Source of the DNA: a virus
Length of the DNA: 64,000 nt
Strand: one strand, 5' to 3'
IMG/VR virus record: IMGVR_UViG_3300014208_000003
Span: 64,001 to 128,000 of that record
Position 1 is the first letter of the stretch. Every line of letters begins with the position of its first letter. This document shows, in pieces, positions 1 through 46,686 of the stretch. The translations under genes were made by a program, and so were the position numbers. The notes beneath the pieces are model-generated. The model saw nothing but the letters and a program-made list of their open reading frames with translations, did no database searches and had not been told where the DNA came from.

Positions 1-4
1 AGCA

Positions 5-295
5 ATGGCATATAACGGAAGAGCAAAAGAACTATATGGGGAATTTGCTGTAGTGAATGATTGTGGTTTTATATTTAATTATGTTCCGGATAAAATTAAA
101 AATAAGACTTCGAAATATATTGGTGTAAGAAGATTCCGAAATAAAGATAAAAAAGAAATGGGATGGACTGCTTATTATAACTCAAAATATATCGGATACT
201 TTAAAACAGAAGATGATGCAAAACAAGCTAGAGATAAATATGTAGAAAATTATAACAAACCATCGCCTGAATATTATATTGGAAACGGTGTTTAA
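5..295 (+). CDS. AP2-domain protein, probably the C-terminal part of an HNH-AP2 endonuclease truncated at the window edge
   Basis: AMAYN..AKELYGEFA and TSKYIGV..W.AY....YIGYFKTEDDA AP2-like repeats. Confidence 0.7.
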   Translation: MAYNGRAKELYGEFAVVNDCGFIFNYVPDKIKNKTSKYIGVRRFRNKDKKEMGWTAYYNSKYIGYFKTEDDAKQARDKYVENYNKPSPEYYIGNGV

Positions 296-912
296 TAACT
301 ATTCCGAATCATCTTTAAAATAAATCTTCCGGATCATTATTAGAAATATTTCCGGAAGATGCTTTTCAAATAATCAATCTCTAATCATTCTATCAACACA
401 CTAATAGTAAACATATATTATGCGCAATGTAAATTCCTTATTCCGGAATATGGTATGGAAGGATTATCGGAAATGGGTTCGGAATACTTCTAGAATGATT
501 CCGGAAAATGGTATCTGAATACTTTCCGGAAGAACTTATCGGAAGAGGGATCCGGAATATTGCTTTATAGGGTATAGCGGTTTTTTATACAGGAGGCGGT
601 TTTGGGGTGTCTAAAGGGGGTGCTCAGATTCGGAATTCTTTCAAAACATTCTTGCGGAAATATTGGAGGAATGATTAGATGAATGTTCCGGAAATCTCAC
701 ATAAAATAATTCTAGAAGTATTCCGGAAGATATTTGTGTTTTTTATTCCGGAAGATTATATTGGTATGAATTTTTGGATTTAATTTTTCGGGAAGTTTTT
801 TGGCTATAGAACTTTTTGTGATTGGTATGAAAATTGCTATGATATTTAATTCCGGAAGAATGTTCAAGAAATAATTTTGATTTAGTATTGTGATATGTTA
901 TTTTAGCGTGGT

Positions 913-1179
913 ATGTATAAAATATTTATTACGAGTGAAGAGAATAGATATCCTGTTATAGTATTATTGCGTGATGGTTGTTTGATGACATGTTATGGTA
1001 CTAAGGTTGAAATATGGATAATACAATGGTCGGATAATTTGAGAAATGAATTACAACGAGTTTATAAAGAAGTTGATATAGAAGATGTTCCGGAGATTTA
1101 CAGGGAATTGGTTCGGAACAGATTATCAGATCCGTTTTTGGATATAGAGACTAGAAGGTTAAAAGTTAAAGATGAATAA
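913..1179 (+). CDS. Small protein, DPFxEID-motif family
   Basis: C-terminal DVPE...LSDPFLDIE; part of an overlapping gene array. Confidence 0.8.
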   Translation: MYKIFITSEENRYPVIVLLRDGCLMTCYGTKVEIWIIQWSDNLRNELQRVYKEVDIEDVPEIYRELVRNRLSDPFLDIETRRLKVKDE

Positions 1180-1450
1180 ATTTAATATTGAGAATGTTAT
1201 ATGTTTCAGGGCGGGTAATGTATATGCGTGTTTTGTTGGGAAGATAATGTGTAAATATAATCTGAAAAAATATATAGCGGTTGAAATGTACAGAAAAATG
1301 ATTGGGATAGATTGGTTTTATAGGATGCAAAAAAATTCGGATGAGAGTATTACCATTCAAGAAGTTCCAGAGAATCTTCAGGAATATATTTTATCACCAT
1401 TTTTTGAGATAGATGTTCTGAGGCAATATCCGGAAATTATTTGGTTATGA
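1172..1450 (+). CDS. Small protein, DPFxEID-motif family
   Basis: EVPE...SPFFEID...YPEIIWL. Confidence 0.8.
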   Translation: MNKFNIENVICFRAGNVYACFVGKIMCKYNLKKYIAVEMYRKMIGIDWFYRMQKNSDESITIQEVPENLQEYILSPFFEIDVLRQYPEIIWL

Positions 1451-1713
1451 GATATTTTACATGGTATAATCATAAAGATCTTGTAGGATATTTGTGTTAT
1501 GCTTATGATGATAGGAAAATCTATTTACGTGCTAGTGATGAGACAGAGGATATTGAATTTACTAGTTATTATATTCCGGAGTGGGTGAAACAAGGTAAAT
1601 TAATAGAAGTTTCTGGTGATATTGTTCCGGAAGTTCTTAAGGAGAGATTTCGGAATAGGTTTGCTGATCCTTTTTTAGAGATTGATTATGAAAGGTTCCT
1701 GAATAGTTTATGA
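1441..1713 (+). CDS. Small protein, DPFxEID-motif family
   Basis: IVPE...ADPFLEID. Confidence 0.8.
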   Translation: MVMRYFTWYNHKDLVGYLCYAYDDRKIYLRASDETEDIEFTSYYIPEWVKQGKLIEVSGDIVPEVLKERFRNRFADPFLEIDYERFLNSL

Positions 1714-1997
1714 GGATATATTTAACAGAACATCCGAATTATTTTACTGTGTTTATTATTTTATTGGAGAAGGGTGATTATTTTGTTTATGTTGGATTTA
1801 AGGAAGATGAATCTGAATCCGGAAAGATTAAATGTGAAGAACTGTTTAAATCAACGACAGAAAGTTTGAAGAGAAAATATCGAGAAATTGGTGTAGATGA
1901 GATTCCGGGAGATTGGAGGGAAATTGTTCAAGGCTTTCTTTCGGATCCTTTTTTAGAGATAGATGTTCGGAGGCTATTGGAAAAGAAATTTGGATGA
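1710..1997 (+). CDS. Small protein, DPFxEID-motif family
   Basis: EIPG...SDPFLEID. Confidence 0.8.
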   Translation: MRIYLTEHPNYFTVFIILLEKGDYFVYVGFKEDESESGKIKCEELFKSTTESLKRKYREIGVDEIPGDWREIVQGFLSDPFLEIDVRRLLEKKFG

Positions 1998-2099
1998 CTT
2001 CGGGAATTGATTGGGATAGGGTTAATAGGCATGTGGGTTGAAGGAATATGTTCAGGAGTGTTTCGGGATAGGTTATCAAATATAAGAAATTTGGGATAG

Positions 2100-2390
2100 G
2101 TGTTTATGGATATTGAAAAGTTTAAGTGTTATCAGCAATCGGTTGGTTTTTATAATATTGTTTTGGGAGAGCAATCGAAATATAGGGTTAAGAAAATTGC
2201 TATTACATTTATTAAAAAATCGGAGAGGTGTAATTCTGATATTTTAATAGATAGTTGGCATTTCGAAGATTCTATTTCTGGCACCGTTATTAAGTTTGAG
2301 GAATTGCCCGATGAGTTATTGAGATATATTCGCGATCCGTTCTTTGAGATAGAAGTAGCGAGAAAGTTTCCGGAGATTGTTTGGTTATGA
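2100..2390 (+). CDS. Small protein, DPFxEID-motif family
   Basis: ELPD...RDPFFEIE...FPEIVWL. Confidence 0.8.
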   Translation: MFMDIEKFKCYQQSVGFYNIVLGEQSKYRVKKIAITFIKKSERCNSDILIDSWHFEDSISGTVIKFEELPDELLRYIRDPFFEIEVARKFPEIVWL

Positions 2391-2680
2391 AAATAGTAAA
2401 AGATAATATTGGTGTTGGTGATGTGTATAAAATGTGGTTGTTCCGGAGTGGTTCAAAAATTATTTATTATAGGTTTAATTTGAATTGGACAGGAATATCA
2501 TATTATTTATGGACAGGTGGTATTATTTATGAACACGATGTAACTTATAATTGTAATGTTGTTCCGGAGAATTTGAGGAAATTGTGTTTGAATATTCTTT
2601 CGGATCCTTTTTTAGAAATTGATTTGAGAAGGAAATATCATAAGTTGTTATCTGGTAATGATGTAGAGTGGTTTATATGA
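2381..2680 (+). CDS. Small protein, DPFxEID-motif family
   Basis: VVPE...SDPFLEID. Confidence 0.8.
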   Translation: MVMKIVKDNIGVGDVYKMWLFRSGSKIIYYRFNLNWTGISYYLWTGGIIYEHDVTYNCNVVPENLRKLCLNILSDPFLEIDLRRKYHKLLSGNDVEWFI

Positions 2681-2934
2681 AATATTTAAAATCTATTAAA
2701 GACTGTAACATGGATTATATTGTTGCTATATCTTTGAGTGAAAAACGTTATTCTAAAAGATATTATTTTGTTTTCTTTTGGGACGATAATGAATTTGGTG
2801 ATTTTCATGAAGGTATAAATTTAGATGATTACAAAGAGATTGATTATAATGCGCTTCCGGAAGATTGCAGAAAGTTTATAGAGTCACCGTTTTTTGATAT
2901 TGATGTTGAAAAGGCACGTGGGAAATTATTATGA
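2668..2934 (+). CDS. Small protein, DPFxEID-motif family
   Basis: ALPE...SPFFDID. Confidence 0.8.
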   Translation: MVYMKYLKSIKDCNMDYIVAISLSEKRYSKRYYFVFFWDDNEFGDFHEGINLDDYKEIDYNALPEDCRKFIESPFFDIDVEKARGKLL

Positions 2935-3245
2935 GGATCTTCCGGAATGAGGAGATATATTCATTGGTTTTAATTTGGAACGATAGAATTCCCGGTGTGG
3001 ATATAAAAACATTGGAAATTATAAGATGGGGTTCTGGGCATTTTGAATTAATGGACGATAGATGGGACTTGGATAGAGAAATTGGTTTAAAAGATATTCC
3101 GGAAGATGTTCGAAAAGAGTTTAGAGAATTTCTTTCGGATCCTTTTTTGGAGATAGATATTCTTAGAAATGATGAATATATAATTAATGGTGTTGATAAG
3201 GCATTGTTTTTTAAGAATTTGCAGGAATATAGAGAAAAGTTATGA
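2931..3245 (+). CDS. Small protein, DPFxEID-motif family
   Basis: DIPE...SDPFLEID. Confidence 0.8.
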   Translation: MRIFRNEEIYSLVLIWNDRIPGVDIKTLEIIRWGSGHFELMDDRWDLDREIGLKDIPEDVRKEFREFLSDPFLEIDILRNDEYIINGVDKALFFKNLQEYREKL

Positions 3246-3525
3246 TTGGGAAATATTATAATTTGGGTAATGATTGTTGTTATTTAGCACGACTTGTTGA
3301 AATAGGTAGTTCTTCTAAAGTTGGATTGTATGTAAGTATTTCTGGAAATTGGATATCTATTTACAAAGAAGATAGTATTCGTTGGTTTATGGTAGAAATG
3401 TTTTCGATGGATGGTATGCTACTAAAGATGTTCCAAAAGATATTCAAGAAGCATTCCGGAAGAAGCTTGATGATCCGTTCTTTGAGATAGATTTTGAAAG
3501 ATGGAAGAGATCAAAAGGACTGTAG
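3242..3525 (+). pseudogene. Frameshifted DPFxEID-family gene
   Basis: The ORF track frame ends at 3490, but the -1 frame from about 3376 reads ..KDVPKDIQEAFRKKLDDPFFEIDFERWKRSKGL* (TAG 3523-3525). Confidence 0.7.
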
Positions 3526-3762
3526 AAATTTTTGATAATCTAATTCCAGAAAAGGATCACGGAATTTTTCTTCAAAGGCTTTTCTGAAATGTTCCGGAAC
3601 ATCTTTTGCTAATACTTTTTTAACAATGTGAGGTGTGTTAGAAATTACGGGCATAGATAATGTAACATGTATTTTCTCACGACCAAAAATATCACGACGA
3701 CCTTTAACCAATATTCCTTTTTTCTGAACGTAATAATAAAGATCAGATTTAAAATATTTCAT
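3511..3762 (-). CDS. Small protein, DPFxEID-motif family
   Basis: KDVPE...RDPFLELD. Confidence 0.8.
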   Translation of the reverse strand: MKYFKSDLYYYVQKKGILVKGRRDIFGREKIHVTLSMPVISNTPHIVKKVLAKDVPEHFRKAFEEKFRDPFLELDYQKFLQSF

Positions 3763-4058
3763 TGTTGGTAATTTTTGGTAAGACTGTAATTGATATTAAT
3801 ATTTGTTGCTACCGGTTTTTGGATATAAGAAAAATACAGTCTCAAAGTAGTAGATTTATTGTTCTCTTTCCATCTTTCATAATCCAACATAGCAAACGTT
3901 TTCATATAATCGGTTAAAGGTATTTTTTGAACATTATATTTTTTATGAATGTTTGCACAATAGTTACCATTAAAACCTTCCCAATAGTCTTCGGATTCAT
4001 CAACTATCAACCATTCTTTATTATCGCTGGTTTTAATAGCGCATCCAATACATATCAT
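3759..4058 (-). CDS. Hypothetical protein
   Basis: ORF overlapping neighbours in the minus-strand operon. Confidence 0.6.
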   Translation of the reverse strand: MICIGCAIKTSDNKEWLIVDESEDYWEGFNGNYCANIHKKYNVQKIPLTDYMKTFAMLDYERWKENNKSTTLRLYFSYIQKPVATNININYSLTKNYQQ

Positions 4059-4992
4059 CGTAGCACTCCATTATAAAATTATCAAACCATTTTGTATCAA
4101 TATTTTCCGGAAGATTGCTTTTAGAAACTAGGTCACTTATTCCGGAAATTATTTCTTCTAATTTTTCGGCAATACCATCGTTCAAATAATGGTATTGTCC
4201 AAGTTTTATTTTGAGTAATTCCGGAGCCTGTTTAAGAGGGTATTTTAAATCACCCGTCTCTAGTATTTCTTTTATTTGATACCCGGCTCTGAATGCATGT
4301 GACACGGCTTTCCAATCGATCCCGGAATTATCTCTTGCTTGTTTTGCTCTGGTTCCATATCCTTCATAAATTCTGTGTAAAATGTTCAGGGCATATTCTA
4401 CGGTAACTGTTTCGGTAATCATTTTTCCGCAACACTCATAATGACGAAGTTCTGGTTGTTTTGGGTTAATAATATTTTTAGTTGGATAAGAGAATTCGTC
4501 TACCGGTAATTTTTCGAATATGTCTGAAATCTTCCGGAATGATTCGAATTGTTCAAGTGTCTTTATAACATTTTCTATGGAAGCTACTCTGGAACCTTTA
4601 ACACCATACTTAGCTGTTTGTGTTTTAATATAACCAAGATAACCTCTCATATTTTTGGAATAGAATTTTGAACGGTTCCTGTGAATTTCTTTCCATATAT
4701 CCGAAGAAGTTATCCAAAGATTTTCCGGAGAATGCACCATATCAATTACGCCCATTTCTCCTTGTATAGCCAATTGAAAGAAATATTGTAGTGAATATAT
4801 TTCTTCATCAACATCATCTTTAGTATTCTTTTCGTTTTGTTTTCCGGTAGTGCTATGAATAGATTTTGGGATTTTATTCAGGAAGCATTGTTCTTTTGTC
4901 GGGAGCATTACGCCTTTAAAATCGTTATCTGAATCTGGCGAATTTGTGCCATACAAGTGACTACCGAAAATTGTTTTAAATATTGTTTTCAT
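4033..4992 (-). CDS. Pol-beta-type nucleotidyltransferase, T4 NrdC.11-like
   Basis: MKTIFKTIFGSHLYGTNSPDSDNDFKG (GS..DxD motif) and DWKAVSHAFR; start refined to 4992. Confidence 0.85.
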   Translation of the reverse strand: MKTIFKTIFGSHLYGTNSPDSDNDFKGVMLPTKEQCFLNKIPKSIHSTTGKQNEKNTKDDVDEEIYSLQYFFQLAIQGEMGVIDMVHSPENLWITSSDIWKEIHRNRSKFYSKNMRGYLGYIKTQTAKYGVKGSRVASIENVIKTLEQFESFRKISDIFEKLPVDEFSYPTKNIINPKQPELRHYECCGKMITETVTVEYALNILHRIYEGYGTRAKQARDNSGIDWKAVSHAFRAGYQIKEILETGDLKYPLKQAPELLKIKLGQYHYLNDGIAEKLEEIISGISDLVSKSNLPENIDTKWFDNFIMECYDDMYWMRY

Positions 4993-5278
4993 GACTATTA
5001 TCCCTAAATTCTCTGTGTGTTGTTCCGAAATCTTTTTTAACATCTATTTCAAAAAACGGATCATTAAATTTTTCTAGTATATCTTTTGGTGGAATTACTT
5101 CGGGAAATATTTCTAATGATTCTGTTTTCAATGTACAGTACCACCAAAGAATATAAATCAAGTCTATGAAAAGCATTTTAATACCTTCCCATCCAATTTC
5201 TGTTTTTACAATAGGATAGAAATAAGTATCTGGTGGCGTCATAAAAGAAGTATGTTTGAAGGCGTGGTAAAATTTCAT
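4976..5278 (-). CDS. Small protein, DPFxEID-motif family
   Basis: IPP...FNDPFFEID. Confidence 0.75.
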   Translation of the reverse strand: MKFYHAFKHTSFMTPPDTYFYPIVKTEIGWEGIKMLFIDLIYILWWYCTLKTESLEIFPEVIPPKDILEKFNDPFFEIDVKKDFGTTHREFRDNSHENNI

Positions 5279-5279
5279 A

Positions 5280-5328
5280 AAAAAAGAAAAACCCTCCTAC
5301 TATACTTCAGAGGGTTTTAACAAGAAAA
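5280..5328 (-). terminator. Intrinsic terminator, near-identical to 50764-50811
   Basis: AAACCCTC/GAGGGTTT stem followed by a T-tract on the minus strand. Confidence 0.75.
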
Positions 5329-5332
5329 GGTT

Positions 5333-6439
5333 TTATGATTTACGTTTGTTTCCGGATTGTACTTCCATAATTCTCCGTTTAATTTCTGGATTACATAGAA
5401 GTAGTTTTTCCGGCCATGTCTTTTTATTTTCTCTGTGTCTCATGAATTGTTCAATCAGTTCTGCCATAATTTCTCCGGGAACGTCTTCAACATAATTCAA
5501 AAGGTTATTGGATATTTTACACGCAACTTCCGAGAACTGTCCACCAAGCTTATCAAAATGTGATTCGTTCTCTTCAAACCAATTACACATTTCACGATTA
5601 ACAACAGCAAGATCCTGAATATTCATTTCCTTAATATCTTTTTTAACTTTCTGATAATTAAGTAAAAGAGTACCTACATGTATTTGTTTATTCTCTCTCC
5701 AAAATTGCATGAAGGTAGCTGTTGCGGCGGCTCCTACGATACTGAACACAACATTTGATATAGTGTGCTCATTCAAATCGGAATTGTTATTAAGAACATC
5801 AGAAACTCTTTTCCACGATCTTCTTGAAGGATATACGGAACCATTAATAGCTTCTTTTCTGGAAGGTGGGTCGAGCAATGAAGTATTTTTGGAAAGGAAT
5901 CCAATTACTTTATTATGAACCTTTCTCGATAACGCCCAATCTACCCACTCATCAAAAGTAGGACGGAAATCAACTTTGTTAAATCTATCCAATAAAGCAG
6001 GATCCAAATCTTCAACCTGATAAGAACCATTATTACTAGGATTAACAGCAGCAACTATCCGAGTATTTTTTGGTAGATCTTTTCCTGCTAATCTTCTGTT
6101 CAAGCATAGATCCATAATGACTTGATGTATTTCTGGTCTGGCACGATTTAACTCATCAAGGAACAGTAGAATCTTTTCATCTGTATCTTTTGGCCACCAG
6201 AGCGGAGGAGCATAATCAGTATATACAATTCCGTTCTTCTCGACTTTATTTGGCAAACCTATTATATCACCAGCATCAGCCATTTGTCCTAGAAAAAGAA
6301 CTATGATCCGATAACCCTTTTTTGAAAAATATTCCGAAACAACTTCTGATTTTCCTATCCCGTGAATGCCTTCTAACATGATTGGTTGGTTTATCGGGGT
6401 GGCATCAATAATTTCACATGTTTCTTTTGCACTAGCCAT
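5333..6439 (-). CDS. MoxR-like AAA+ ATPase
   Basis: Walker A GIHGIGKS, Walker B LFLDELNRA, LDPALLDRF, PSRRSW. Confidence 0.9.
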   Translation of the reverse strand: MASAKETCEIIDATPINQPIMLEGIHGIGKSEVVSEYFSKKGYRIIVLFLGQMADAGDIIGLPNKVEKNGIVYTDYAPPLWWPKDTDEKILLFLDELNRARPEIHQVIMDLCLNRRLAGKDLPKNTRIVAAVNPSNNGSYQVEDLDPALLDRFNKVDFRPTFDEWVDWALSRKVHNKVIGFLSKNTSLLDPPSRKEAINGSVYPSRRSWKRVSDVLNNNSDLNEHTISNVVFSIVGAAATATFMQFWRENKQIHVGTLLLNYQKVKKDIKEMNIQDLAVVNREMCNWFEENESHFDKLGGQFSEVACKISNNLLNYVEDVPGEIMAELIEQFMRHRENKKTWPEKLLLCNPEIKRRIMEVQSGNKRKS

Positions 6440-6777
6440 TATTTAACTCCTACTGGTAAATTTGTAAATATGTCAATAAAATCATTACTGAAACAAGAAG
6501 GACATTGAGTAACATCTTTGTGAACACTTCTTCCGCAATCCTGACACCGAATAAAATCTTCACGGACATCATCAACAATAGATTCAATATACCTTTCCGG
6601 AATCATTGTACCATCAACTAATACATAATCTTTCGGAAGGAGTTTAGTAGTATCACATTCGATAGTACATCCTTCAAGCTGTTTTAACTTCGCAACAAAT
6701 TTTTGGTTCGGAAATCTCGCGCAAAGTTGATTCTGAAAATGAACGGTTAAAGCATTGTCCTTGATTTTGACTCTCAT
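6439..6777 (-). CDS. Hypothetical protein with C-terminal zinc ribbon
   Basis: CQDC...CPSC. Confidence 0.65.
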   Translation of the reverse strand: MRVKIKDNALTVHFQNQLCARFPNQKFVAKLKQLEGCTIECDTTKLLPKDYVLVDGTMIPERYIESIVDDVREDFIRCQDCGRSVHKDVTQCPSCFSNDFIDIFTNLPVGVK

Positions 6778-6902
6778 TACAAATCCTTTTCTGTTAAATT
6801 TTTATGATACTACAAGATAACTTTTAAAACTAATCAATGTCAAGTCATTTAGAATATTCTCCGGAAACATAATCAAACTATGCCTTTGAATATTATTTTG
6901 AA

Positions 6903-7274
6903 TTACTTTGTTGCCGAGTATGCTTCAATTACTTTTTCTATTGTAAAAAATTCTGGGTTGATGAATGCTAGAATTGTTGGTTCTACGTTGAAAATAATAC
7001 ACAACAAAGATATCAATACAATCAAACCACTCACCAATAATCCAACTATATAAAAAACATTATCTTCTTTTTCTTTTTCAAGGAAATTATAAAATATTCC
7101 GAATATAACTCCGAATATAGCAAAAAGACATGTACTATAAACCATTGCCAGATATTGTTTAGCTACAGAATATTTTATAAACTGTTCACTAATATTTTGC
7201 ATATGAGGAACCATTCTAGAAACAATACCTTCCATTTTTGAGAAAGCCAGATTTACAGAATTCGTGTCTAACAT
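6903..7274 (-). CDS. Membrane protein
   Basis: Two hydrophobic segments; GGAG ribosome-binding site. Confidence 0.7.
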   Translation of the reverse strand: MLDTNSVNLAFSKMEGIVSRMVPHMQNISEQFIKYSVAKQYLAMVYSTCLFAIFGVIFGIFYNFLEKEKEDNVFYIVGLLVSGLIVLISLLCIIFNVEPTILAFINPEFFTIEKVIEAYSATK

Positions 7275-7354: not shown

Positions 7355-8335
7355 TTACATCATAGTTACTAAATCAAATGCTTTCTGTTTCATCGTTGCA
7401 CCTGTTCCGAACATTATTGAATTCATTCTCATATCAGCATTCTTTTTAACTGCTACAGCTTCATGATCCGCAAATTGAGTAACTGCATTTAATAGACTCC
7501 ATGCTGTTCCGGAAATACCTTTAAGATTATTTTTAGGATCATTTTCAAAATTGTTTTTAACACGAGTCATTATATTCTTTGCTCTTGTACTTGCTTCATC
7601 ACCTTCTTCTTTTTTAGGAGCGAAACAATCAAGAAGGAACTGTTCAACCATTTTAGAATCAACCTGTTTTAATGCAAGATGATTAGCTATTTCTGAAAAT
7701 TTATGTGTGTATTCTGCATTGATATTTAATATTGTCTGTGCTTCCTGTATCCTTGATGAAATATCTCCTGTATGACGAATTGATACTGCATTCTTAGCAC
7801 CACGAATAGCAGCATTAAGAGTATTGTTACAAACCACTCTTATATTTGTAAAGAATGATTTTAATGCAAGTGATCCGTCATGAGAATTAAAAACACATAT
7901 ATAAGTATCAGAAACATCATCAGTACCATTTATTCTTACCTGATTTTTTGTCTTGGCTGTTGCAAATACTCTTCTACCACCAAATAAAGATCCAGCGGTT
8001 TCGTATTTTAATTCACCACAACCAACCAACGATTCAAAAAATGCAAACATTTCTGTATTCTGTATTGGTGCATAATCTTCTCCGACAACCGATAATATAG
8101 CTTTAGTATCATTGCGAACTATTGCCACTTTTTCCGGAACAGCGATATCCAAAAAAGGATCACAATTAGGAACAACCATATCCATTTTAGATACAGACCA
8201 ATCCAAATGAGCAGCTTTAATCATTTCAAAAGAACCTACATCCTGTTCCAACTTCTGTCCTAAATTGTGCCACGGTAGATTTCCCGAAAAAGCCATCTCG
8301 CTGATTCCGTTTGTATTTGTAATTTCATGTGCCAT
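7355..8335 (-). CDS. DUF932 / phage-plasmid TIGR03299-type protein
   Basis: PWHNLG, YETAGSLFGGRRVF, NSHDGS, RVVCNNTL, IRHTG, GTAWSLLNAVT. Confidence 0.9.
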   Translation of the reverse strand: MAHEITNTNGISEMAFSGNLPWHNLGQKLEQDVGSFEMIKAAHLDWSVSKMDMVVPNCDPFLDIAVPEKVAIVRNDTKAILSVVGEDYAPIQNTEMFAFFESLVGCGELKYETAGSLFGGRRVFATAKTKNQVRINGTDDVSDTYICVFNSHDGSLALKSFFTNIRVVCNNTLNAAIRGAKNAVSIRHTGDISSRIQEAQTILNINAEYTHKFSEIANHLALKQVDSKMVEQFLLDCFAPKKEEGDEASTRAKNIMTRVKNNFENDPKNNLKGISGTAWSLLNAVTQFADHEAVAVKKNADMRMNSIMFGTGATMKQKAFDLVTMM

Positions 8336-22619: not shown

Positions 22620-22910
22620 TTAAATTTCCATACCGTGTGATTCTTGTTCCCGAAATCTTTTTAAATCTATCTCAAAGAATGGTTCCGCAATTTTATCGTT
22701 AACAATTTTTCTAATATCTTCCGGAACATTCCTACAAATTAAATTATAATCTCTAAATCCTTTTATTAGTTTCATTTCTCCATTATATTTTTCATATCTT
22801 ATAAAACAAGATACAATCGAATGAATTTTACTTTTACATTCGCCAACATATCTATAAAACGTTCCACCTAAATCGGCTTCGTCAATAAATTCCCAATATT
22901 CTTCAACCAT
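22620..22910 (-). CDS. Small protein, DPFxEID-motif family (dispersed copy)
   Basis: NVPEDIRK...AEPFFEID. Confidence 0.75.
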   Translation of the reverse strand: MVEEYWEFIDEADLGGTFYRYVGECKSKIHSIVSCFIRYEKYNGEMKLIKGFRDYNLICRNVPEDIRKIVNDKIAEPFFEIDLKRFREQESHGMEI

Positions 22911-23264: not shown

Positions 23265-24461
23265 TTAAGATTCGTGTCTATCTAAATGAGCTACTTCACC
23301 CCAATCAACAGGGGGTTTATTCTGTTTGTTGGTCATAAGCCATAATACTTTTGTTTTAGAAGGTTTAGTTGGAGCATCTGCAAAACCATCTGTGTAAATT
23401 ATAAGTCCGTCAATATTTTCTTTTTCTGCTAGGTTTATAATTGCCTGAAAATCTGTACCACCTCTACCATGAACTTTTACAGAATCTTTTGCCTTTCTCC
23501 ATTTTTTCTCTATATGCTTAATTTCTGTATCAAACTGTACACAAGAAAGTTCGGAATGCTTACAGACAGAATTGATTACCGAAAATGCTTCTGCTAAATC
23601 TTGATCTGAAACACTTCCGGAAACATCAACAGAAAACATAATTTTACTTTTATAATCTCTTCTATGTCCCGGAACTTCAAATTCTCTTCTCCGGTTCATT
23701 TTCATTCTAATTGCGTGTTGCTGTGTAGTTGTTACCGATGTTGTGAACCTTCTTAGAATATCTCTCCAATAAATTTTAGGAGTAACAGAAGCAATAATAT
23801 CACCGACAGCTTTACCAGTATATTTTCCCCATTGCTTTGATGATCCTTTATTTTGATTTATCAGTTCTTTTACTTCTGCATCCATTAACTGATTTTCTTC
23901 CCAGTATTTCGCAGTATCACCAAGTTGTTTCATATACTCTTTTAAATCTTTGGTTGCTTTCGAATCTCCTTTTTGTGGTTCGAGATTCATCATAGTAGAA
24001 GGAATTTTTGGTGTATTTTCTTCCAACCATTTAAAAAAGAATTCGTAATAAGCATTATCCTTGAAATCATCAATACCAAACATTTCAGGAGTTAATGTCT
24101 TTGATTCGGAGCAGTCGTGCAAGCAGTTATTTACGGTCAAATTACTTGCTAGTGCTGCGAGTTCCCTTGGTGACTTTAAACGTGTTGTGGGATGTCTGTA
24201 GAGCATTCTGAAGCCTTCCGATACCAAAACAAATTCCAGAACCTCATCGTTTATTTTATTAATGTATTCCGGATTATATTTCAAAGATGGTCTGGAACCT
24301 CTTGGATCGATAGCTACGGTTTTAATTGTAGTATCTTCTTCTTTTTCTAATAAGCAATATGTCTGAAGTAAAACTGGATCGTTAAAGAAAAATTTTGTAA
24401 TCTGGTTTTCAATACGGTCTTTAGCACTCATGAAGTCTTTTCTCCTGTAAATCGATTCCAC
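23265..24461 (-). CDS. DUF2201-like (metallopeptidase-like plus VWA) protein, probable MoxR partner
   Basis: VDVSGS, QFDT, GRGGTDF, YTDG MIDAS motifs. Confidence 0.85.
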   Translation of the reverse strand: MESIYRRKDFMSAKDRIENQITKFFFNDPVLLQTYCLLEKEEDTTIKTVAIDPRGSRPSLKYNPEYINKINDEVLEFVLVSEGFRMLYRHPTTRLKSPRELAALASNLTVNNCLHDCSESKTLTPEMFGIDDFKDNAYYEFFFKWLEENTPKIPSTMMNLEPQKGDSKATKDLKEYMKQLGDTAKYWEENQLMDAEVKELINQNKGSSKQWGKYTGKAVGDIIASVTPKIYWRDILRRFTTSVTTTQQHAIRMKMNRRREFEVPGHRRDYKSKIMFSVDVSGSVSDQDLAEAFSVINSVCKHSELSCVQFDTEIKHIEKKWRKAKDSVKVHGRGGTDFQAIINLAEKENIDGLIIYTDGFADAPTKPSKTKVLWLMTNKQNKPPVDWGEVAHLDRHES

Positions 24462-33478: not shown

Positions 33479-34051
33479 TTAACTGACTTGATCTTTTATT
33501 ATGTAAATGTAATCGTAAAGTTTTAATCTGAATTCTTCTGTTTTATTATATCCACACGTTTTAAATTCTGGACACAAACCATTTCTATAGATACATTCCG
33601 GAACACAGACAGAAACTAATTCCGGTTCTTTTGTTTTAAGCATATCTAGAAATGATTGCCATGCTTTTGTTGTTTCTGGATGAGCCTGTTTACAAAGACG
33701 TTTTCTGGATATGCTTATTATAGATTGTGCGTTGGCTATACAATTATGATTTACAGGAACGGATTGAATTAAACTATCTCTATTCTTTCCTGTTCGATCA
33801 TCTCTTTGTGTGGTGACGAAATGTTCTGTATTATTTTTAGAATGTCTCACAAAATGAACGGATATCCAAGACTTTATTCCTTTCCATGTCCAATCTATCA
33901 TCTTCTTTCTTATCGGGGAATGTTCGGAAAGATATAATTTCTTTAACCAACTTCTAGACGGTGGTTCTAATGCACTCGGTTTATTTACAGTGTTCCTAGC
34001 TGCATCTAACATCTCTTTATTGTTATTTGATATGTAATTTATTTTAATCAC
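33479..34051 (-). CDS. thyX: Flavin-dependent thymidylate synthase-like protein
   Basis: EHSPIR, HFVRH, TQR, RKRLC, VPECIYR.G.CPE. Confidence 0.8.
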   Translation of the reverse strand: MIKINYISNNNKEMLDAARNTVNKPSALEPPSRSWLKKLYLSEHSPIRKKMIDWTWKGIKSWISVHFVRHSKNNTEHFVTTQRDDRTGKNRDSLIQSVPVNHNCIANAQSIISISRKRLCKQAHPETTKAWQSFLDMLKTKEPELVSVCVPECIYRNGLCPEFKTCGYNKTEEFRLKLYDYIYIIKDQVS

Positions 34052-34602
34052 ATCTTCTCCACTATTTTATCTGCAATACCGTATTTAATAGCTTCTTCGG
34101 GAGTTAACCATGTGTCGGTTGGTTGTAGTAAAAAATCAATAATTTTCTCTTTATTTTTCTTTACTGTTAAATGTTTTCTATAATGATTTCTAATTTGTTT
34201 CGCTGTTATTTCGAATGCTTTTGTCGCTCCTAATAATTCATGTTCTTTTCCATGACTTCCCCAAGAATATTGATGAGAAAGGATCAAAGTGTTTTTTGTA
34301 ATCGTTCTGGTGCCCTTTTCTCCTGTCATGAATATCAACAATCCACACGAACAAATCTCCCCTAAACCTATTGTCTGAATCGGTATTTTTGAAAATTCCA
34401 TAAAATCAGTTAAACCAAAAGAGGCTGTTATTAATCCACCCGAAGAATTTATATATAATTTTAATTTAGATCTTTTTATAGGATTTATATTTTCTTCTAT
34501 AATCCATTCTATGCTAGGTTTCACTGTCGCGGTTGATATATCTTCCGTCAATAACATTATACCACAATCTTTTAAACTTTTTGAATCTTTAACTGGCTCC
34601 AT
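34048..34602 (-). CDS. clpP: ClpP-like protease
   Basis: YINSSGG, ICSCG, SHQ, DTWL.PEEA..YG.AD. Confidence 0.88.
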   Translation of the reverse strand: MEPVKDSKSLKDCGIMLLTEDISTATVKPSIEWIIEENINPIKRSKLKLYINSSGGLITASFGLTDFMEFSKIPIQTIGLGEICSCGLLIFMTGEKGTRTITKNTLILSHQYSWGSHGKEHELLGATKAFEITAKQIRNHYRKHLTVKKNKEKIIDFLLQPTDTWLTPEEAIKYGIADKIVEKM

Positions 34603-39803: not shown

Positions 39804-40808
39804 ATGGGAAAGAAAAGATTAACAACAGAAGAATTCGTTCAAAGAGCAACAGAAATTCATGGCGATAAGTACGATTATTCAAAGGTAATATATCTTAATA
39901 CAATGGCTAAAGTCAATATAATTTGTAAAATACACGGAGAATTTCAACAAACACCAAATAAACATTTAAGTCATGAGCATGGTTGTCCGTATTGTGGTAA
40001 TAATGTGATATTAACAACAGAAATATTTTTAGATCGATCAAAAGTAGCTCTTGGTGATAGATATGATTATAGTCAATCTGTATATGTGAATAGTTCAACA
40101 CTTATTAAAATAAGATGTAAAGAACATGATCTTTGGTTTAATCAAAGACCGAGAGAACATATTCTAGGTCAATTAGGTTGTAAAACATGTAGAGATATAA
40201 TAGCTCATAATAAATTCGCCAAAACCACCGAACAATTTATAAAAGAAGCACAAGAACTACATGGCAGTATAAGATATTCTTATCATAAAACAAAATATAA
40301 TAAGGCGTTGGAAAAAGTAGAGATTGTTTGTAATAAACATAACATGTCTTTCTTTGTAAAACCGTCACACCATTTAAGAGGAATAGGATGTCCTTTATGC
40401 AATTCTTCGTTCGGAGAGAGAATTATTAAACTATTTTTAGATAATAATAAAATACAACACATACACCAAAAACGTTTTTATGATTGCAGAAACAAAAAAC
40501 CGCTACCGTTTGATTTTTATTTACCGGAACACAATACATGTATTGAATATGACGGTGAACAACATTATTTTCCAGTTATAAGATTTCAGAAACATTACGT
40601 TACAGAACAAAATGCAATAAAAATACACGAAACTGTAAAAATACACGATTCTATTAAAACAAAATATTGCGAAGATAATAATATAAAATTACTAAGAATA
40701 TCATATACACAAAGAGATGATATAAAAAATATTCTTAGTAAATATTTATTAAATAATCATCCACATTTAGAAAATGTACACTGTGAACATTTTACACAAC
40801 CATCGTAA
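39804..40808 (+). CDS. Free-standing homing endonuclease (DUF723-like repeats plus PD-(D/E)XK/Vsr-like domain)
   Basis: Repeated F...A...HG..YDYS..Y....I.C..H; PLPFDFYLP..N.CIEYDGEQH; LLRISY. Confidence 0.85.
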   Translation: MGKKRLTTEEFVQRATEIHGDKYDYSKVIYLNTMAKVNIICKIHGEFQQTPNKHLSHEHGCPYCGNNVILTTEIFLDRSKVALGDRYDYSQSVYVNSSTLIKIRCKEHDLWFNQRPREHILGQLGCKTCRDIIAHNKFAKTTEQFIKEAQELHGSIRYSYHKTKYNKALEKVEIVCNKHNMSFFVKPSHHLRGIGCPLCNSSFGERIIKLFLDNNKIQHIHQKRFYDCRNKKPLPFDFYLPEHNTCIEYDGEQHYFPVIRFQKHYVTEQNAIKIHETVKIHDSIKTKYCEDNNIKLLRISYTQRDDIKNILSKYLLNNHPHLENVHCEHFTQPS

Positions 40809-43800
40809 TAAATCATTTTTGAACCACAAGATTCACATATTTCTTTATATGATTCACCATCTTTGATATACTGTTTAAGAACTCTAGAAACGCTTTTATC
40901 GAACGAAGTAAAGTCGTCGCTCTTATTAAGTTGCTCAACTATGAATCTCAGGGGTACACCATGACGGATTGACATTGAGATAAATCTTGCTAAACTTCTT
41001 TCTACCGTACTTCCAAATTTACCCAAATTATCAATAAGGATTTCTTCGTTGCATAACAATCTATAATGATTTGTTTTTACTTTACGAATTATTCCCGATG
41101 TATGTTTTTCGTATTTTTCTTTATCTTTTTCATCTATAATAGCTACAAACATTTCATAAAGCATACCATTCAATTTACCAACGAGAATTACCATATGATC
41201 GGATTTTACTTTTAATACCTTTATATCACATTCCAAGTCTTGCGGTCTTTTAGGTGCATCTCTACGACTAACATTTTCATTCTCTTTTACATCACTAGAA
41301 GCATGTCCTAATATATTATTTCTACATTCATCGCGATATACTGTAACACCGATTACACCTTTTTTATAAGCATCTAGATAAACCTTGGCAACCTGTTCTT
41401 TGGTAGCTTCTTTAGGCATGTTGATTGTCTTACTTACTGATAAAGATACATAGTTAGCAAATGGTTCTAATATTTCGAGATGCCATTCGGGAGATATATC
41501 ATTAGCAACTACGAATGTATCTTTTTCTTCTTTAGTTAGATATTTACAACTTTGAACAGAACCGTTATGTTTAGTTACATGTGCGAGAATTTCTTCTTTA
41601 TATTTAAGATATTTTTCATCAATAAACTTTTCAAAAACAGGATCTGCTATAAACATTTCGGTGTATTCTTTATTTCCTGTTTCTACTTTGCGAATATATA
41701 CCAATCCAAATACAGGTTCGATACCAGAAGATGTGTTGACAATCGTAGAAATACTTCCTGTTGGAGCTATACTTGACAAACTGGAATTATATACTCCGTG
41801 TTTTTTAATATCTTCCACAAGATTATTATTAACAAGCATCCCGAATCGTTTAACAAAAGAATCGTATTGACTAAAAAGTCTTTCGTTAGCTTTCAAATAT
41901 ATTTTTTCGTCATACCACTCAAACGTTTTTTTATTTTCTTTAGCTATTACACAACTTTCATCCATACCAACTAGCGTAATAAATTTCATTAGATCTTCTG
42001 CTATAGTTTTTGCTTGTATGGAATTATATTTAATTTTCATTTCGTATAAAGCATGAGCAAAACCCATTAATCCTAAACCAATGGGACGAGATGAGTGCGA
42101 TACTTTTTTTATCTTCTCTAATGGATAATTATTATTATCGATCACTGCATTTAGATAACGTACAGCTTTTCTAACAATGATATTTAAACGATCATAATCA
42201 AAATCATTTTTTGAAACAAATTTAGAAACATCTATTGAACCAAGATTACAAGAAGTATAAGGAACAGTTGTGACAAACTCGGAACAATTTGAAATATTAA
42301 AACCATTACACCAAAAAGTATGAGAATCATTATCAACCGTTATATCAAAAACCGAATTTATACCCATTGATTCTGTAGAAATTATTTCAAATTGTCTTTT
42401 TTTACGAGTAGTTTTTCGTTCCTCATTTAAAATAGTAATAACTTTTTCATTTTTATATTTTTGTAAAAATTTTATTTTATTAAAAAATTTATCTTTATCA
42501 GAACAAACATTTAAGTCATAAGATTCTTTAGATTTATATATTCCATTATCCCAAGTAATATTAGATGCTTTATTAGTTGTATAATATGACATGATTCCAA
42601 TAGAATTTAACATTAATTGAACTTGATTTATCAATTCTTTACATGTAGATTTGAGAGTGATTCGTCCACCTGTAACAGAACCATTTGCGGAATATAAGCC
42701 TATTAAAAATCCAATTTTTTTAGAAGTATTTCCATAAAAAAATCTATCAGGTACTTTTCTAACAGGTAACAAAGGAAGTTCAGCAATAGTTATAGTGGTT
42801 TTTATTTCGTAAATTTTATCAGATGATGGATATAAAGTACCTATTATTTTATCTTTTATATCAGAAATAAAATAATCACTATCATTAGCTCCTATTATTA
42901 ACCCAATATCTTTGTTTCTATTGCTTAAATTTTTAAAATTTTTAGAATTGGTTGTTCCATCACCCACAACAAGACCATCCATTATATCTCGAGGATCTAT
43001 ATTTTCAAATATATTTTCTCCAACTATCACATCTAACATTTCAGCATCTTTAATTTCTATCTTGATATCATCATTAACAATTCTATGATTATCAGTAGAT
43101 TCTAAATAACCTGCTCTAGTTGTATATTTATAAACTTCCTTTTCACCTGTATACCATTTATTAATTACTGTAGTCCATCCTTCATTAGACCAAATTTCAT
43201 CACCAATATTAATATCTTTTAATTGAACAATACCTTGCTTAGACAATAGAAGCGCGGTATCCATCAAACATGGGTTTGTAAGTGCTTTATTATCAATATG
43301 TATTAGTGTGCTTCTATCCTTTATAAAATCTTCGTTAATAATTCCCGGTTCTGCTACACTCCATGCCTGTTCAATAATTATATCCCACAACATTTCATAA
43401 GTATATTCTTTTCCGGAACTATCTTTTAAAACATTTTCCTGACCATTTGTTATGTTAATTGTTTTAAATATTTTTTTCGGATTTGCTTTTAAAACATTAT
43501 AAAAATCATTATCTATCTTTATTGAAAAATTACTTCTGTTATATTCATTTAAGTTTTTCTTTGCATTTATAAAATCTAATATTTGTGGATGATATATTGA
43601 CAAAAGGGACATGCCAGCTCCGCGCCTTATTCCTTGACGAATGCCACTTAAAACCGCATCATAAATTCCCACAAAAGAAAGTACACCACCGGATTTTTTA
43701 CCAGTTCCTTTCACCAATTCTTCTTTACCTCTTAATACAGAAAAATCAAGACCAACACCACCACACGCTTTTGTCACTAGCGCAACTTCTTTCATCGATT

Positions 43801-45507: not shown

Positions 45508-46366
45508 TTAGAACCTCTGTTGTTAAGTGTTTGATTGATTCAGTGTAAAGAGCAAAATCATCCTTAATCTTTTTTAGGCTATTGGTAACACAAAATTCTA
45601 AAAATTTCATATAACCAAAGGACTCTAAACGGATGCTATCGAATGTATTTAACACCGATTTTTTAACATCTTCCGGAATCTCTTCAAACGATATTAACAA
45701 TCTATTTCTTTTAATATTTTCTTTTACTTCGTCTGGTTGTTTATCATCGTACAAAATACCTTCATTAAAATATTTTGTAGCTTTTACTGGCCCTGTTTTT
45801 GGAAGAATTGCTGGAATATTATCACCGGAATCTCCCATTATAATTTTTACATCTAGATCTGTTAGGGGATTAAGACTTTCAAGATAATCGGCAGCGCAAG
45901 GACTGAATATTTTTACACCTTCAAATTTTAGTAGTTGTATAAAATCCTTATCAGAAGAAACTATTGTAATATCTCCCAAATCTCTTTCTTTAGTTAGGAT
46001 CGCAACAATATCATCACACTCAGAATCTTTAACTCTCATCCAATAAAAATTTGGGAATACTTTCTTTAACTCTTCTACAAAACCATCATTCACTTTATAG
46101 AACTGTTCATAATCGATTAGAGAGGCTTTACGTGCGTCTAAACGTTGTGCCTTATATTCCGGATATACTTTCTTTCTCCATGACTTTGAATCGATTGCTA
46201 TGACCACTCTATCAGGTTTAAATTTCAAAACATAATCCAGAATAGTTTTTGTCATTAAATGCTTCCAACCACCATAATTATCATCTATCAACATATTTTT
46301 ATAAGCAATATATAAATTACGATACATTATATTATGCCAGTCAATCATTATTGTTTTTTTTCTCAT
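45500..46366 (-). CDS. rnh: T4 RNase H-like 5'-3' exonuclease
   Basis: WRK..YPEYKA.R, ECDD, SSDKDF.QL, GDSGDNIP. Confidence 0.9.
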   Translation of the reverse strand: MRKKTIMIDWHNIMYRNLYIAYKNMLIDDNYGGWKHLMTKTILDYVLKFKPDRVVIAIDSKSWRKKVYPEYKAQRLDARKASLIDYEQFYKVNDGFVEELKKVFPNFYWMRVKDSECDDIVAILTKERDLGDITIVSSDKDFIQLLKFEGVKIFSPCAADYLESLNPLTDLDVKIIMGDSGDNIPAILPKTGPVKATKYFNEGILYDDKQPDEVKENIKRNRLLISFEEIPEDVKKSVLNTFDSIRLESFGYMKFLEFCVTNSLKKIKDDFALYTESIKHLTTEVLNA

Positions 46367-46686
46367 TAGTTTTCCTTAAATGTGTTGTGGATGGTGGTTA
46401 TATATTTTAAACAATCTATTTCTAAGAACGGATCCGAAAGCATGTTCAGAACAACTTTTTCAACACTGTCCGGAACTTGGTTTATTGCTCTCTGTTTGTT
46501 ATCTAAATTGTGATCCCATGCTAATTCTGGTTCCGAACATTCTCCCATATTAGTTTCTACTCTTATCGCAATTACATATTCTCTATCTTCTATTTTTATT
46601 AGATTGTCAAAATAGTAGTAATAAATGATCCAATCATCCTCTATCCTGTCCATATTTATAGCGTACCAGAAACCTTCTAACGCCAT
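46366..46686 (-). CDS. Small protein, DPFxEID-motif family (dispersed copy)
   Basis: QVPDSV...LSDPFLEID. Confidence 0.75.
   Translation of the reverse strand: MALEGFWYAINMDRIEDDWIIYYYYFDNLIKIEDREYVIAIRVETNMGECSEPELAWDHNLDNKQRAINQVPDSVEKVVLNMLSDPFLEIDCLKYITTIHNTFKEN

Follow-up and report, generated by a model that had tools for sequence, protein, structure and literature searches.

A 37-member family of small variable-head, constant-tail proteins in a T4-like phage, and its possible role as a repertoire of host-interaction binders

Expanded viral gene families with fast turnover are usually a sign of the front line between virus and host. Tandem multigene families of this kind include MGF360/505/110 of ASFV and the host-range gene families of poxviruses, and the poxvirus ankyrin-PRANC (F-box-like) proteins form a viral family with a variable head and a constant adaptor. 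In T4, the internal proteins IPI-III and Alt share an N-terminal capsid-targeting sequence that the prohead protease cleaves, and are expressed late. At the DNA level, HIP1 is the highly iterated palindrome of cyanobacteria, and conserved boundary sequences promote mosaic exchange among lambdoid phages.

The family described here resembles each of these systems in part. Like the ASFV and poxvirus families, it consists of lineage-specific tandem paralogs in variable parts of the genome, with copy number and content that vary among close relatives and a presumed role in host interaction; unlike those families, which belong to eukaryotic viruses and have other folds, it occurs in a T4-like phage, its proteins are ~90 aa long and unalignable over half their length, and its motif is partly a DNA palindrome. 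It shares with the ankyrin-PRANC proteins a variable N-terminal, putative recognition part, a conserved C-terminal module and dozens of copies per genome, but has no sequence or fold relation to them, and its heads are narrow in size and seemingly form one domain with the tail. As with IPI-III and Alt, otherwise unrelated small phage proteins carry one short constant segment; here, however, that segment is C-terminal, ~30 aa long and predicted to be helical, and it is encoded in apparently early/middle regions without late promoters. Like HIP1, the palindrome TTCCGGAA lies inside genes far above chance through codon choice, whereas in the phage one copy is fixed in the motif of a protein family, so that protein and DNA constraints coincide. 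Short conserved stretches beside highly divergent segments, and close relatives that are mosaic, recall the lambdoid boundary sequences, but the conserved stretch of the phage family is coding and under protein-level selection, and exchange is only suggested.

The window analysed comprises 64,000 nucleotides (positions 64,001 to 128,000 of IMG/VR record IMGVR_UViG_3300014208_000003), and coordinates refer to it unless marked as genome positions. Six-frame translation yielded 13 copies of the core motif PF[LF][ED][IL][DE], against a chance expectation of 0.0 (mean of mononucleotide shuffles) or 0.025 (triplet-block shuffles). They correspond to 12 intact genes and one frameshifted gene, encoding proteins of 83-106 aa (Table 1), and all 13 lay where the original prediction had placed nine plus-strand, one convergent and three dispersed copies. 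Its estimate of at least 13 members holds for the window and is too low for the genome: the whole 158-kb phage, assigned as T4-like by its gp23-type capsid, S77 prohead protease, gp46/gp47 and nrdC.11-like genes, carries 37 members plus decayed remnants. The family thus accounts for 37 of ~266 genes (~14%, or about one in seven) and 6.4% of the DNA, which is exceptional for a T4-like phage, and it is annotated nowhere. Genes within the arrays are tightly packed, with overlapping stops and starts. Reading frames are intact in 36 of the 37 profile-detected copies; the exception, member 9, has a one-base frameshift that separates the frames of its head and tail ORFs; the tail frame also has a TAG at 3373, and the copy is a pseudogene unless the sequence is in error.

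Table 1. Coordinates of family members and adjoining features in the window.
Feature	Position	Strand	Evidence or remark
Member 1, 88 aa, opens plus-strand array	913..1179	+	ORF; profile E=1.4e-23; VPE encoded GTTCCGGAG
Member 2, 92 aa, ends PEIIWL	1172..1450	+	ORF and profile
Member 3, 90 aa	1441..1713	+	ORF and profile; palindrome site GTTCCGGAA
Member 4, 95 aa, AlphaFold-modelled	1710..1997	+	ORF and model
Member 5, 96 aa, ends PEIVWL	2100..2390	+	ORF and profile
Member 6, 99 aa	2381..2680	+	ORF and profile
Member 7, 88 aa, short 11-codon spacing	2668..2934	+	ORF and profile; palindrome site CTTCCGGAA
Member 8, 104 aa	2931..3245	+	ORF and profile
Member 9, frameshift-split near 3370	3242..3525	+	Head ORF 3242-3490, tail ORF 3382-3525
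Member 10, 83 aa, convergent to plus-strand array	3511..3762	-	ORF and profile
Member 11, 100 aa, between AAA_5 and RlaP genes	4976..5278	-	ORF and profile
Member 12, 96 aa, dispersed, AlphaFold-modelled	22620..22910	-	Profile E=1.5e-26
Member 13, 106 aa, dispersed	46366..46686	-	Directly upstream of RNase H and a ClpP gene
99-aa ORF, possible decayed relative	3759..4058	-	Tail-like stretch AMLDYERWKEN; family profile only E=0.32
RlaP/nrdC.11-like nucleotidyltransferase gene	4033..5043	-	Pfam
AAA_5 ATPase gene	5333..6439	-	Pfam
Spacer upstream of plus-strand array, palindrome-dense	296..912		10 TCCGGA, 8 of them TTCCGGAA

Database searches bore out the suggestion that the family had not been described before. 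None of 81 scanned members reached any family cut-off in Pfam-A or PHROG, the best recurrent matches there (POTRA_1 and PepSY_like) being found in 2 of the 81 with E values of at least 0.013. GenBank phages gave no family match, a comparison of PDB chain sequences with the family profile gave no real match (only four hits, E at least 0.16), and no report of the motif was found in the literature. The only relatives retrieved were small: 1.84 billion proteins yielded 58 further clusters of 35-122 aa, all metagenomic.

The predicted architecture of a variable head on a constant tail was supported. The shared module comprises the C-terminal ~27-31 aa, with 11 residues between PE and DPF, or 7 in the short form, and is nearly invariant across the 37 genome members at P (37/37), F (36/37) and I (36/37), as well as at E/D, D/E and R/K positions. 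Heads, by contrast, are unalignable: BLAST E values below 0.01 were obtained for only 11 of 666 head pairs, ~105 heads fell into 84 BLAST clusters with no profile-profile similarity, and the N-termini have at most M-x-x-aromatic in common. What the heads retain is length (median 57 aa, SD 11.7, range 46-82 aa) and a richness in aromatic residues, F, W and Y making up 17.0% compared with 10.5% in the larger proteins of the phage (W enriched 2.9-fold, Y 1.9-fold). The tail was never found on a larger protein, nor on any partner other than a 46-82-aa beta-rich head; the single fusion in the family joins an HD domain to one whole member, and the two are separate genes in the related phage L147.

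In both AlphaFold models, of members 4 and 12 (pLDDT 74 and 72, pTM 0.53 and 0.42, respectively), a beta-meander forms the head and a capped helical hairpin comes after it. Strands are predicted at residues 3-8, 11-15, 24-26 and 58-60 and helices at 67-77 and 82-94 in member 4, compared with strands at 6-9, 17-26, 32-42 and 45-53 and helices at 64-74 and 79-92 in member 12. The tails reach pLDDT 80-89, while the heads, for which the input alignments were poor, are modelled with moderate confidence (pLDDT 58-76, pTM 0.42-0.53). Both halves of the motif sit at helix N-caps in the two models, [VIL]PE capping helix 1 and [DSN]PF capping helix 2. Fold searches with the two models matched no known fold. 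The PepSY-like family PF11396, whose fold sets a helical hairpin on a four-stranded sheet, scored under its cut-off in two members (E=0.045), PDB 2k5w (PepSY-like/BLIP-like) gave a profile E of 0.25 and a Foldseek E of 3.2 with a reversed order of elements, the phage family being sheet-first, and the comparison with the ToxN/AbiQ fold (Z=3.8-4.7, rmsd 3.4-4.1 A over 87-91 residues) lay within the noise range of this search. The family thus appears to have a common predicted architecture with an unmatched fold and unalignable heads rather than to comprise ordinary paralogs of a known fold with the motif in its core. Given that the tail is exclusive to 46-82-aa heads and that the motif halves fall at modelled helix N-caps, a tail forming an integral part of one small domain would match these observations no worse than a detachable one, and the docking tag of the original prediction is a candidate reading.

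The first third of the tail carries a double code. [VIL]PE is encoded as xTT-CCG-GAA (VPE as GTT CCG GAA), which is the iterated palindrome TTCCGGAA of this genome; codons and flanks of the site copy the palindrome, the flanks matching its genome-wide symmetric context, and are conserved as DNA. The Pro codon at the VPE site is CCG in 27 of 35 members, compared with 23% genome-wide (p=2e-11) and with only 8 of 37 at the DPF site, so TTCCGGAA is maintained there by codon choice beyond the need for the amino acids. In the relatives the site is encoded N-T-CCGGA, that is, with TCCGGA, in 30 of 36 members, and TCCGGA is carried by 29 of 32 family genes versus 23 of 49 non-family genes in the 80-120 aa size range. 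The palindrome, of which there are ~300 copies genome-wide, is denser in family genes (4.2 per kb) than elsewhere (1.4-2.2 per kb), and its placement, uniform in other genes, is fixed at the VPE site in the family; where it is lost there, a copy appears elsewhere in the tail. The PEI(I/V)WL endings, confirmed on the two members for which they had been noted, are instances: member 2 has no TCCGGA at its usual VPE site and one in the YPE of its C-terminal extension (codon 85), and in member 5 TCCGGA sits in the FPE of the extension (codon 89). In the DPFFEIDLxR block only the protein sequence is conserved, the synonymous codons being scrambled. [VIL]PE is therefore not a purely protein feature, which calls for caution; the site cleanly exemplifies bases that serve both a protein motif and a DNA signal found genome-wide, and through it the family is connected with the phage's TTCCGGAA lattice.

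Comparison of array content across related genomes revealed differing member sets at shared sites. Fragments of the syntenic relatives L146/L147, L149, L152 and L153 have arrays at equivalent sites with different copy numbers: four members follow gp46 in relatives versus two in this phage, and the interval from RlaP to the convergence point holds ~6 members among 8 small genes in relatives versus one member and the 99-aa ORF here, an ORF with orthologues at the equivalent place in L152 and L153 (37-38% identity). Flanking proteins are 62-84% identical across the relatives, whereas family members match over ~30 tail residues only. Between the RlaP/nrdC.11-like and AAA_5 genes (4033-6439), which are 65-76% identical to those of L149 and L152, members intervene in all three phages, yet the heads at that position in L149 and L152 do not align with member 11. 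The convergent layout of member 10 recurs in L153. With tandem arrays, copy number and content that vary between relatives, and decayed and frameshifted copies in the genome, the family has the features of viral birth-and-death evolution. Pooled dN/dS was 0.59 for heads and 0.66 for tails, compared with 0.16-0.34 for neighbouring genes; these values and the scrambled synonymous codons of the DPFFEID core indicate that selection acts on the protein, and the head value, being below 1, does not demonstrate positive selection. Between the near-identical L152 and L153, divergence is confined to the heads, synonymous sites included (head dS 0.54-0.57 versus tail dS 0.06-0.18 in two genes). A diversity-generating retroelement is not indicated, the complete genome having no RVT_1 match and paralog heads sharing no DNA similarity.

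The arrays neighbour gp46/gp47, RNase H, HD and DHH genes and not structural genes. Plus-strand sites of the late promoter TATAAATA lie mostly at genome 16-47 kb, the region with the gp23 capsid and S77 protease genes, and the main array regions (genome 58-69 kb and 130-144 kb) contain none; the sole site close to any member (genome 110660) is inside member 13 and not upstream of it. From the absence of this one motif and the gene neighbourhood, early or middle expression would be the best reading.

We consider the family most readily explained, with a probability of roughly 45%, as a birth-and-death repertoire of early/middle, small cytoplasmic host-interaction binders on a constant scaffold. 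Each member would probably be one compact domain, as suggested by the narrow head length, the absence of the tail from larger proteins, the fusion of a whole member to the HD domain and the two independent, concordant models. In such a domain a fast-diverging N-terminal beta-meander of three or four strands, rich in Trp and Tyr, would be backed by a constant C-terminal helical hairpin, both helices of which would start at the conserved motifs. Array genes, set among replication and recombination genes of early/middle type, would duplicate, diverge, get lost and sometimes recombine, leaving different sets at shared sites in related phages. On the strength of this evolutionary pattern and the analogy with viral multigene families, the heads may be a repertoire of binding surfaces directed at host proteins that vary, whether defence or takeover targets, with the hairpin as their shared scaffold and possibly with a common functional surface formed by its invariant F, I, E, D and R. 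Should the heads indeed be binders, the phage would naturally possess a collection of small anti-host proteins that all use one tiny scaffold.

The near-invariance of these polar and aromatic tail residues across paralogs that otherwise share nothing exceeds the usual need of a folding core, and there may be a common partner. It speaks for an adaptor library, in which the constant hairpin would dock one partner and the heads would bring different host proteins to it; candidates are the phage's own ClpP pair with a host unfoldase, the AAA_5 protein and the sliding clamp. The adjacent AAA+ ATPase of the original prediction is indeed present, and ClpP genes lie nearby: besides a T4-type prohead protease the phage has two ClpP-like proteins, the gene for one of which, showing Ser/His/Asp motifs, belongs to the gene string of member 13, and adjacency of AAA_5 to a family member is conserved in three phages. 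With 37 copies genome-wide, however, adjacency to any given gene is expected, the phage encodes no ClpX-type unfoldase, the tail is never borne by heads of other sizes or folds as a true docking tag would be, and helix capping and hairpin packing explain the motif positions, so that we regard adaptors as a possible but rather doubtful reading. Cassette exchange, in which the tail, with TTCCGGAA at the head-tail junction, would serve mainly as a crossover point for head swaps among paralogs and between co-infecting phages, is unlikely. The conserved module does start at the palindrome, head similarity does not follow tail similarity (r=0.08), certain pairs of paralogs from different arrays have unrelated heads on tails with 39-53 identical bases or 85% nucleotide identity, and L152 and L153 diverge in the heads alone; but most tails are synonymous-saturated and lack long identical runs, the palindrome is widespread and evenly placed in other genes, eight bases are too short for homologous recombination, and exchange accounts for diversity and not for protein function. 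The recombination anchor of the original prediction fails for most tails, whose codons are scrambled at the DNA level, and survives in part: the runs of identical tail bases beside unrelated heads in a few paralog pairs and the relatives differing only in their heads make occasional tail-mediated exchange plausible. An improbable further reading combines these ideas in a self-diversifying binder library, with the TTCCGGAA junction as the head crossover among the 37 paralogs and between co-infecting phages and possibly with tail delivery to a common machine such as the ClpP pair; if this were true, the phage could assemble its anti-host proteins combinatorially.

A role as internal proteins packaged into the virion, for which the tail would signal capsid targeting or ejection, draws on the analogy with the T4 internal proteins and on the presence of a T4-type prohead protease. 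It is disfavoured and appears very improbable, since the shared module is C-terminal and not N-terminal, no late promoter lies in or before the arrays, their neighbours are of early/middle type, and the members are acidic to neutral, not basic. We likewise give little credence to the idea that the ORFs are incidental carriers of the palindrome lattice and their proteins functionless. The high palindrome density of family genes, and the fixed site with a copy that shifts within the tail, would be expected of such carriers; the intact frames, the DPFFEIDLxR block kept despite scrambled codons, the retained head length and composition and dN/dS below 1 would not. The palindrome-dense spacer upstream of the plus-strand array has no Rfam match and no unusual fold, and shares two conserved blocks with its syntenic counterpart in L153.

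Exactly 13 copies were recovered by an ORF list for window positions 1-7000 together with a six-frame motif scan, at the very positions for which the original prediction had claimed a family of small proteins (about 80-105 aa) with variable N-terminal heads and a shared C-terminal tail. The family is supported directly by its core, PF[LF][ED][IL][DE], which occurred 13 times in the window versus 0.0-0.025 times in shuffles. Adjacent family genes overlapped by 4-13 bases, and a purine-rich stretch preceded the start of most family genes. The scale of the family is likewise a direct result: the source record is a complete virus of 158,262 bp with terminal repeats, and a profile built from the window's members found 37 members in the whole genome, where they amount to 37 of ~266 genes and take up 6.4% of its DNA.

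Family members in the window and in the whole genome (window positions unless marked genome)
Feature	Position	Strand	Source
Eight intact plus-strand members	913 to 3245	+	ORF list, motif scan
Ninth plus-strand copy, head and tail in different frames	head 3242-3490, tail 3382-3525	+	
Convergent member	3511-3762	opposite to plus-strand array	
Dispersed members	4976-5278, 22620-22910, 46366-46686	-	
Member array	genome 58.5-63.5 kb	-	profile search
Member array	genome 64.9-67.8 kb	+	profile search
Member array	genome 130.3-132.6 kb	-	profile search
Member pair	genome 138.7-139.2 kb		profile search
Single members	genome 69.0, 86.6, 110.4 and 143.5 kb		profile search
Tail-only remnant (besides the frameshifted copy)	genome 54.5 kb		

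The genome carried T4-like markers, namely a gp23 capsid protein (E=2e-77), an S77 prohead protease (genome 3909-4352), gp46/gp47-like genes, RNase H and an nrdC.11/RlaP nucleotidyltransferase; the capsid-gene DNA found no match among GenBank phages. Late promoters of the form TATAAATA were present, and their plus-strand sites lay mostly at genome 16-47 kb, where the genes for the gp23 capsid and the S77 protease also lie. The main array regions had none, the sole site near any member being inside the dispersed copy 46366-46686. Because the main arrays lack TATAAATA and their neighbours are replication, recombination and nucleotide-metabolism genes, we infer that the arrays are probably expressed early or in the middle period. 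A scan for sigma-70-type promoters and terminators gave counts at shuffle expectation.

As to its kind, this is a viral multigene family, unusually large for a T4-like phage, and it is unusual within that kind in that one half is unalignable and the motif overlaps a genome-wide palindrome. The family is undescribed. Neither single members nor all 81 aligned members scored above threshold in Pfam or PHROGs, tblastn of one member against 50,697 GenBank phages and a comparison of the family with PDB sequences gave no match, and literature searches on motif strings and multigene families found nothing relevant. Among 1.84 billion cluster representatives, searched exhaustively with HMMER, 93 proteins were recovered (35 of the phage's own and 58 external); they were 35-122 aa long, none was named, and every one came from a metagenome assembly in ENA, Logan or JGI. 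A degenerate DPFFEID DNA pattern hit 18 loci in IMG/VR and at least 119 in JGI/ENA metagenomes, chance matches of which none passed the family profile.

Anchored on an invariant proline, the tail read [DSN]-P-F-[FL]-[ED]-I-[DE]-hydrophobic-x-[RK]-aromatic (Pro in 37 of 37 members, Phe and Ile in 36 each), with an upstream element, [VIL]-P-E-[DE]-[VI]-x-[KE]-x-[FVL], 15 codons before it or, in the short form, 11. Since the synonymous codons of DPFFEID were mixed (Pro CCT/CCA/CCG 19/10/8; Glu GAG/GAA 17/13; Ile ATA/ATT 19/17; Arg AGG/AGA), this block is conserved as protein. The architecture class found direct support in models of two members built from the 81-sequence alignment, 1710-1997 (pLDDT 74, pTM 0.53) and 22620-22910 (pLDDT 72, pTM 0.42): both had N-terminal beta strands, four of them long and antiparallel-type in 22620-22910, followed by two C-terminal helices, one starting directly behind PE and the other directly behind DPF (tail pLDDT 80-89). 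Because of these starting points, each half of the motif is predicted to N-cap one helix of a helical hairpin. Foldseek searches of PDB and BFVD with the two models gave no usable match (best E=0.04-0.8), exhaustive and wide VIA-align comparisons with the PDB did not rise above background (best Z=4.3-4.7), and recurrent weak pointers to ToxN/AbiQ and PepSY-like structures were at noise level; ESM Atlas returned no feature matches, and its own model was poor (pLDDT 0.41).

The sole fusion was a 264-aa protein in which a whole member is joined to an HD phosphohydrolase domain (L002:3542-4336(-), equal to genome 131542-132336). Since the two parts are distinct genes that overlap in L147, a contig of a related phage (174 aa for HD, 85 aa for the member), the fusion would have arisen by an indel or be a sequence error. 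Searches for longer carriers found the tail on no larger protein, a point of slight weight by itself. Together, the N-cap role of the motif halves, this absence from larger proteins and the fusion with a whole member favour one small domain rather than a detachable tag.

The heads resisted alignment: only 11 of 666 pairs in the present genome reached a BLAST E<0.01, ~105 heads from all sources formed 84 clusters (68 of them singletons), and hhalign, run between profiles of the three biggest head clusters, gave probabilities below 1%. Head length was nonetheless narrow (median 57 aa, SD 11.7), and head composition was distinctive: W was enriched 2.9-fold, Y 1.9-fold and each of C, M and R ~1.6-fold, and A, P, Q and T were depleted. 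Derivation of heads from one another by frameshift was rejected, there being no DNA similarity in other reading frames, as was DGR-type hypermutation, there being no reverse transcriptase in the genome.

While shared DNA runs were being compared between members, it was seen that V-P-E is written GTT-CCG-GAA, which is TTCCGGAA, a form of the palindrome present in the genome as 301 copies of TCCGGA. The VPE proline codon was CCG in 27 of 35 members, versus 23% genome-wide (p=2e-11) and versus 8 of 37 for the DPF proline (Fisher p=4e-6), and the codon before it had T as its last base in almost every member. Where the palindrome was lacking at this site, a copy usually lay elsewhere in the tail, either in the AFRN/AFRK frame or, for the PEI(I/V)WL pair, at the PE of the extension. 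In relatives the site read N-T-CCGGA, thus with TCCGGA, in 30 of 36 members, and the family flanking consensus AAAGATGTTCCGGAAGAT.TT..AAAA agreed with the symmetric context of 259 non-family sites. The palindrome was present in 29 of 32 family genes versus 23 of 49 others of similar size, at 4.2 per kb versus 1.4-2.2 per kb. Dual coding is directly supported by this codon bias, the relatives' TCCGGA, the enrichment in family genes and the flank match, so that ~10 codons of the "protein motif" are constrained as DNA and as protein at once; the part that is a signature of protein alone is DPFFEIDLxR. The 617-bp spacer ahead of the plus-strand array (296-912) held 10 TCCGGA, 8 of them TTCCGGAA; its blocks at ~578-635 and ~784-818 were conserved in the syntenic spacer of the related contig L153, and it matched no Rfam family and showed no unusual RNA fold.

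Contigs carrying the external family proteins were fragments of related phages syntenic with the present genome, in the orders gp46, four members, gp47, HD, members (L146/L147); AAA_5, members, RlaP, array (L149 and L152); and HNH endonuclease followed by a plus-strand and a minus-strand array that converge (L153), the same layout as window 1-5043. Flanking proteins were 62-84% identical to those of the present phage. Turnover is evident directly: members at the same position in relatives matched only over ~30 tail residues, the best match usually being a non-syntenic paralog, and copy number per site differed from that in the present genome, so that the pattern is one of birth and death.

At a probability of roughly 0.45, we read these genes as an early/middle small-protein multigene family in which a constant hairpin scaffolds a fast-changing beta surface directed against variable host targets, the heads thus acting, presumably, as binders. 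Pooled dN/dS (heads 0.59, tails 0.66) exceeded that of neighbours (0.16-0.34), so that constraint on the family is relaxed, but values below 1 give no proof of positive selection. That new heads instead arise by cassette exchange over shared tails is rather improbable, although occasional recombination through tails is plausible. Most tails had no long identical run in common with another, and tail and head similarity were uncorrelated; in a few pairs from different arrays, whose heads were unrelated, the tails had 39-53 bases in a row alike or were 85% identical. Between the almost identical, mosaic phages L152 and L153 (L152:9200-11300 vs L153:4480-7427), two adjacent members had heads of only 65-80% identity, and the sole other places with such a drop were parts of two small genes next to them, the tails with their palindromes staying at 93-100%; head dS in these two members was 0.54-0.57 versus a tail dS of 0.06-0.18.

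A tail that docks onto one common partner is unlikely, if less so than cassette exchange; it gains a little from the near-invariance of polar tail residues, and a little from two phage ClpP-like proteins besides the prohead protease, one of which shares a gene string with 46366-46686, but the phage encodes no ClpX-type partner (AAA_2). Capsid targeting of the kind known for T4 internal proteins is highly improbable for arrays placed among replication genes and away from late promoters. Equally improbable are non-functional ORFs that merely carry the palindrome, given a DPFFEIDLxR block that is conserved despite its mixed codons.

The two ClpP-like genes, at 44878-45507(-) and 34048-34602(-), scored 104 and 94 bits with Pfam CLP_protease, each had Ser/His/Asp motifs, and they were additional to the S77 protease; phage ClpP as a query found no close relatives in IMG/VR, and such a pair in an early/middle region is unusual for a T4-like phage. 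An HNH/AP2-type homing-endonuclease-like gene (window 5-295(+), gene start genome 63579) lay between the minus- and plus-strand arrays, its L153 counterpart being 79% identical, in the same position and annotated Pfam HNH_3. Adjoining the convergent member, a 99-aa ORF at 3759-4058(-) with a tail-like stretch AMLDYERWKEN (family profile E=0.32) had orthologues at the equivalent place in L152 and L153 and may be a decayed or divergent family relative. A DUF932 protein was encoded at 7355-8335(-). The AAA_5 (MoxR/CobS-like) ATPase at 5333-6439(-) and a DUF2201 VWA-plus-metallopeptidase protein at 23265-24461(-) formed a pair separated by 17 kb, each with a family member close downstream. At 40757-44056(-) lay a 1099-aa class II (B12-dependent) ribonucleotide reductase, whose best GenBank phage matches, in Bacteroides phages DAC16/DAC23, were only ~28% identical.
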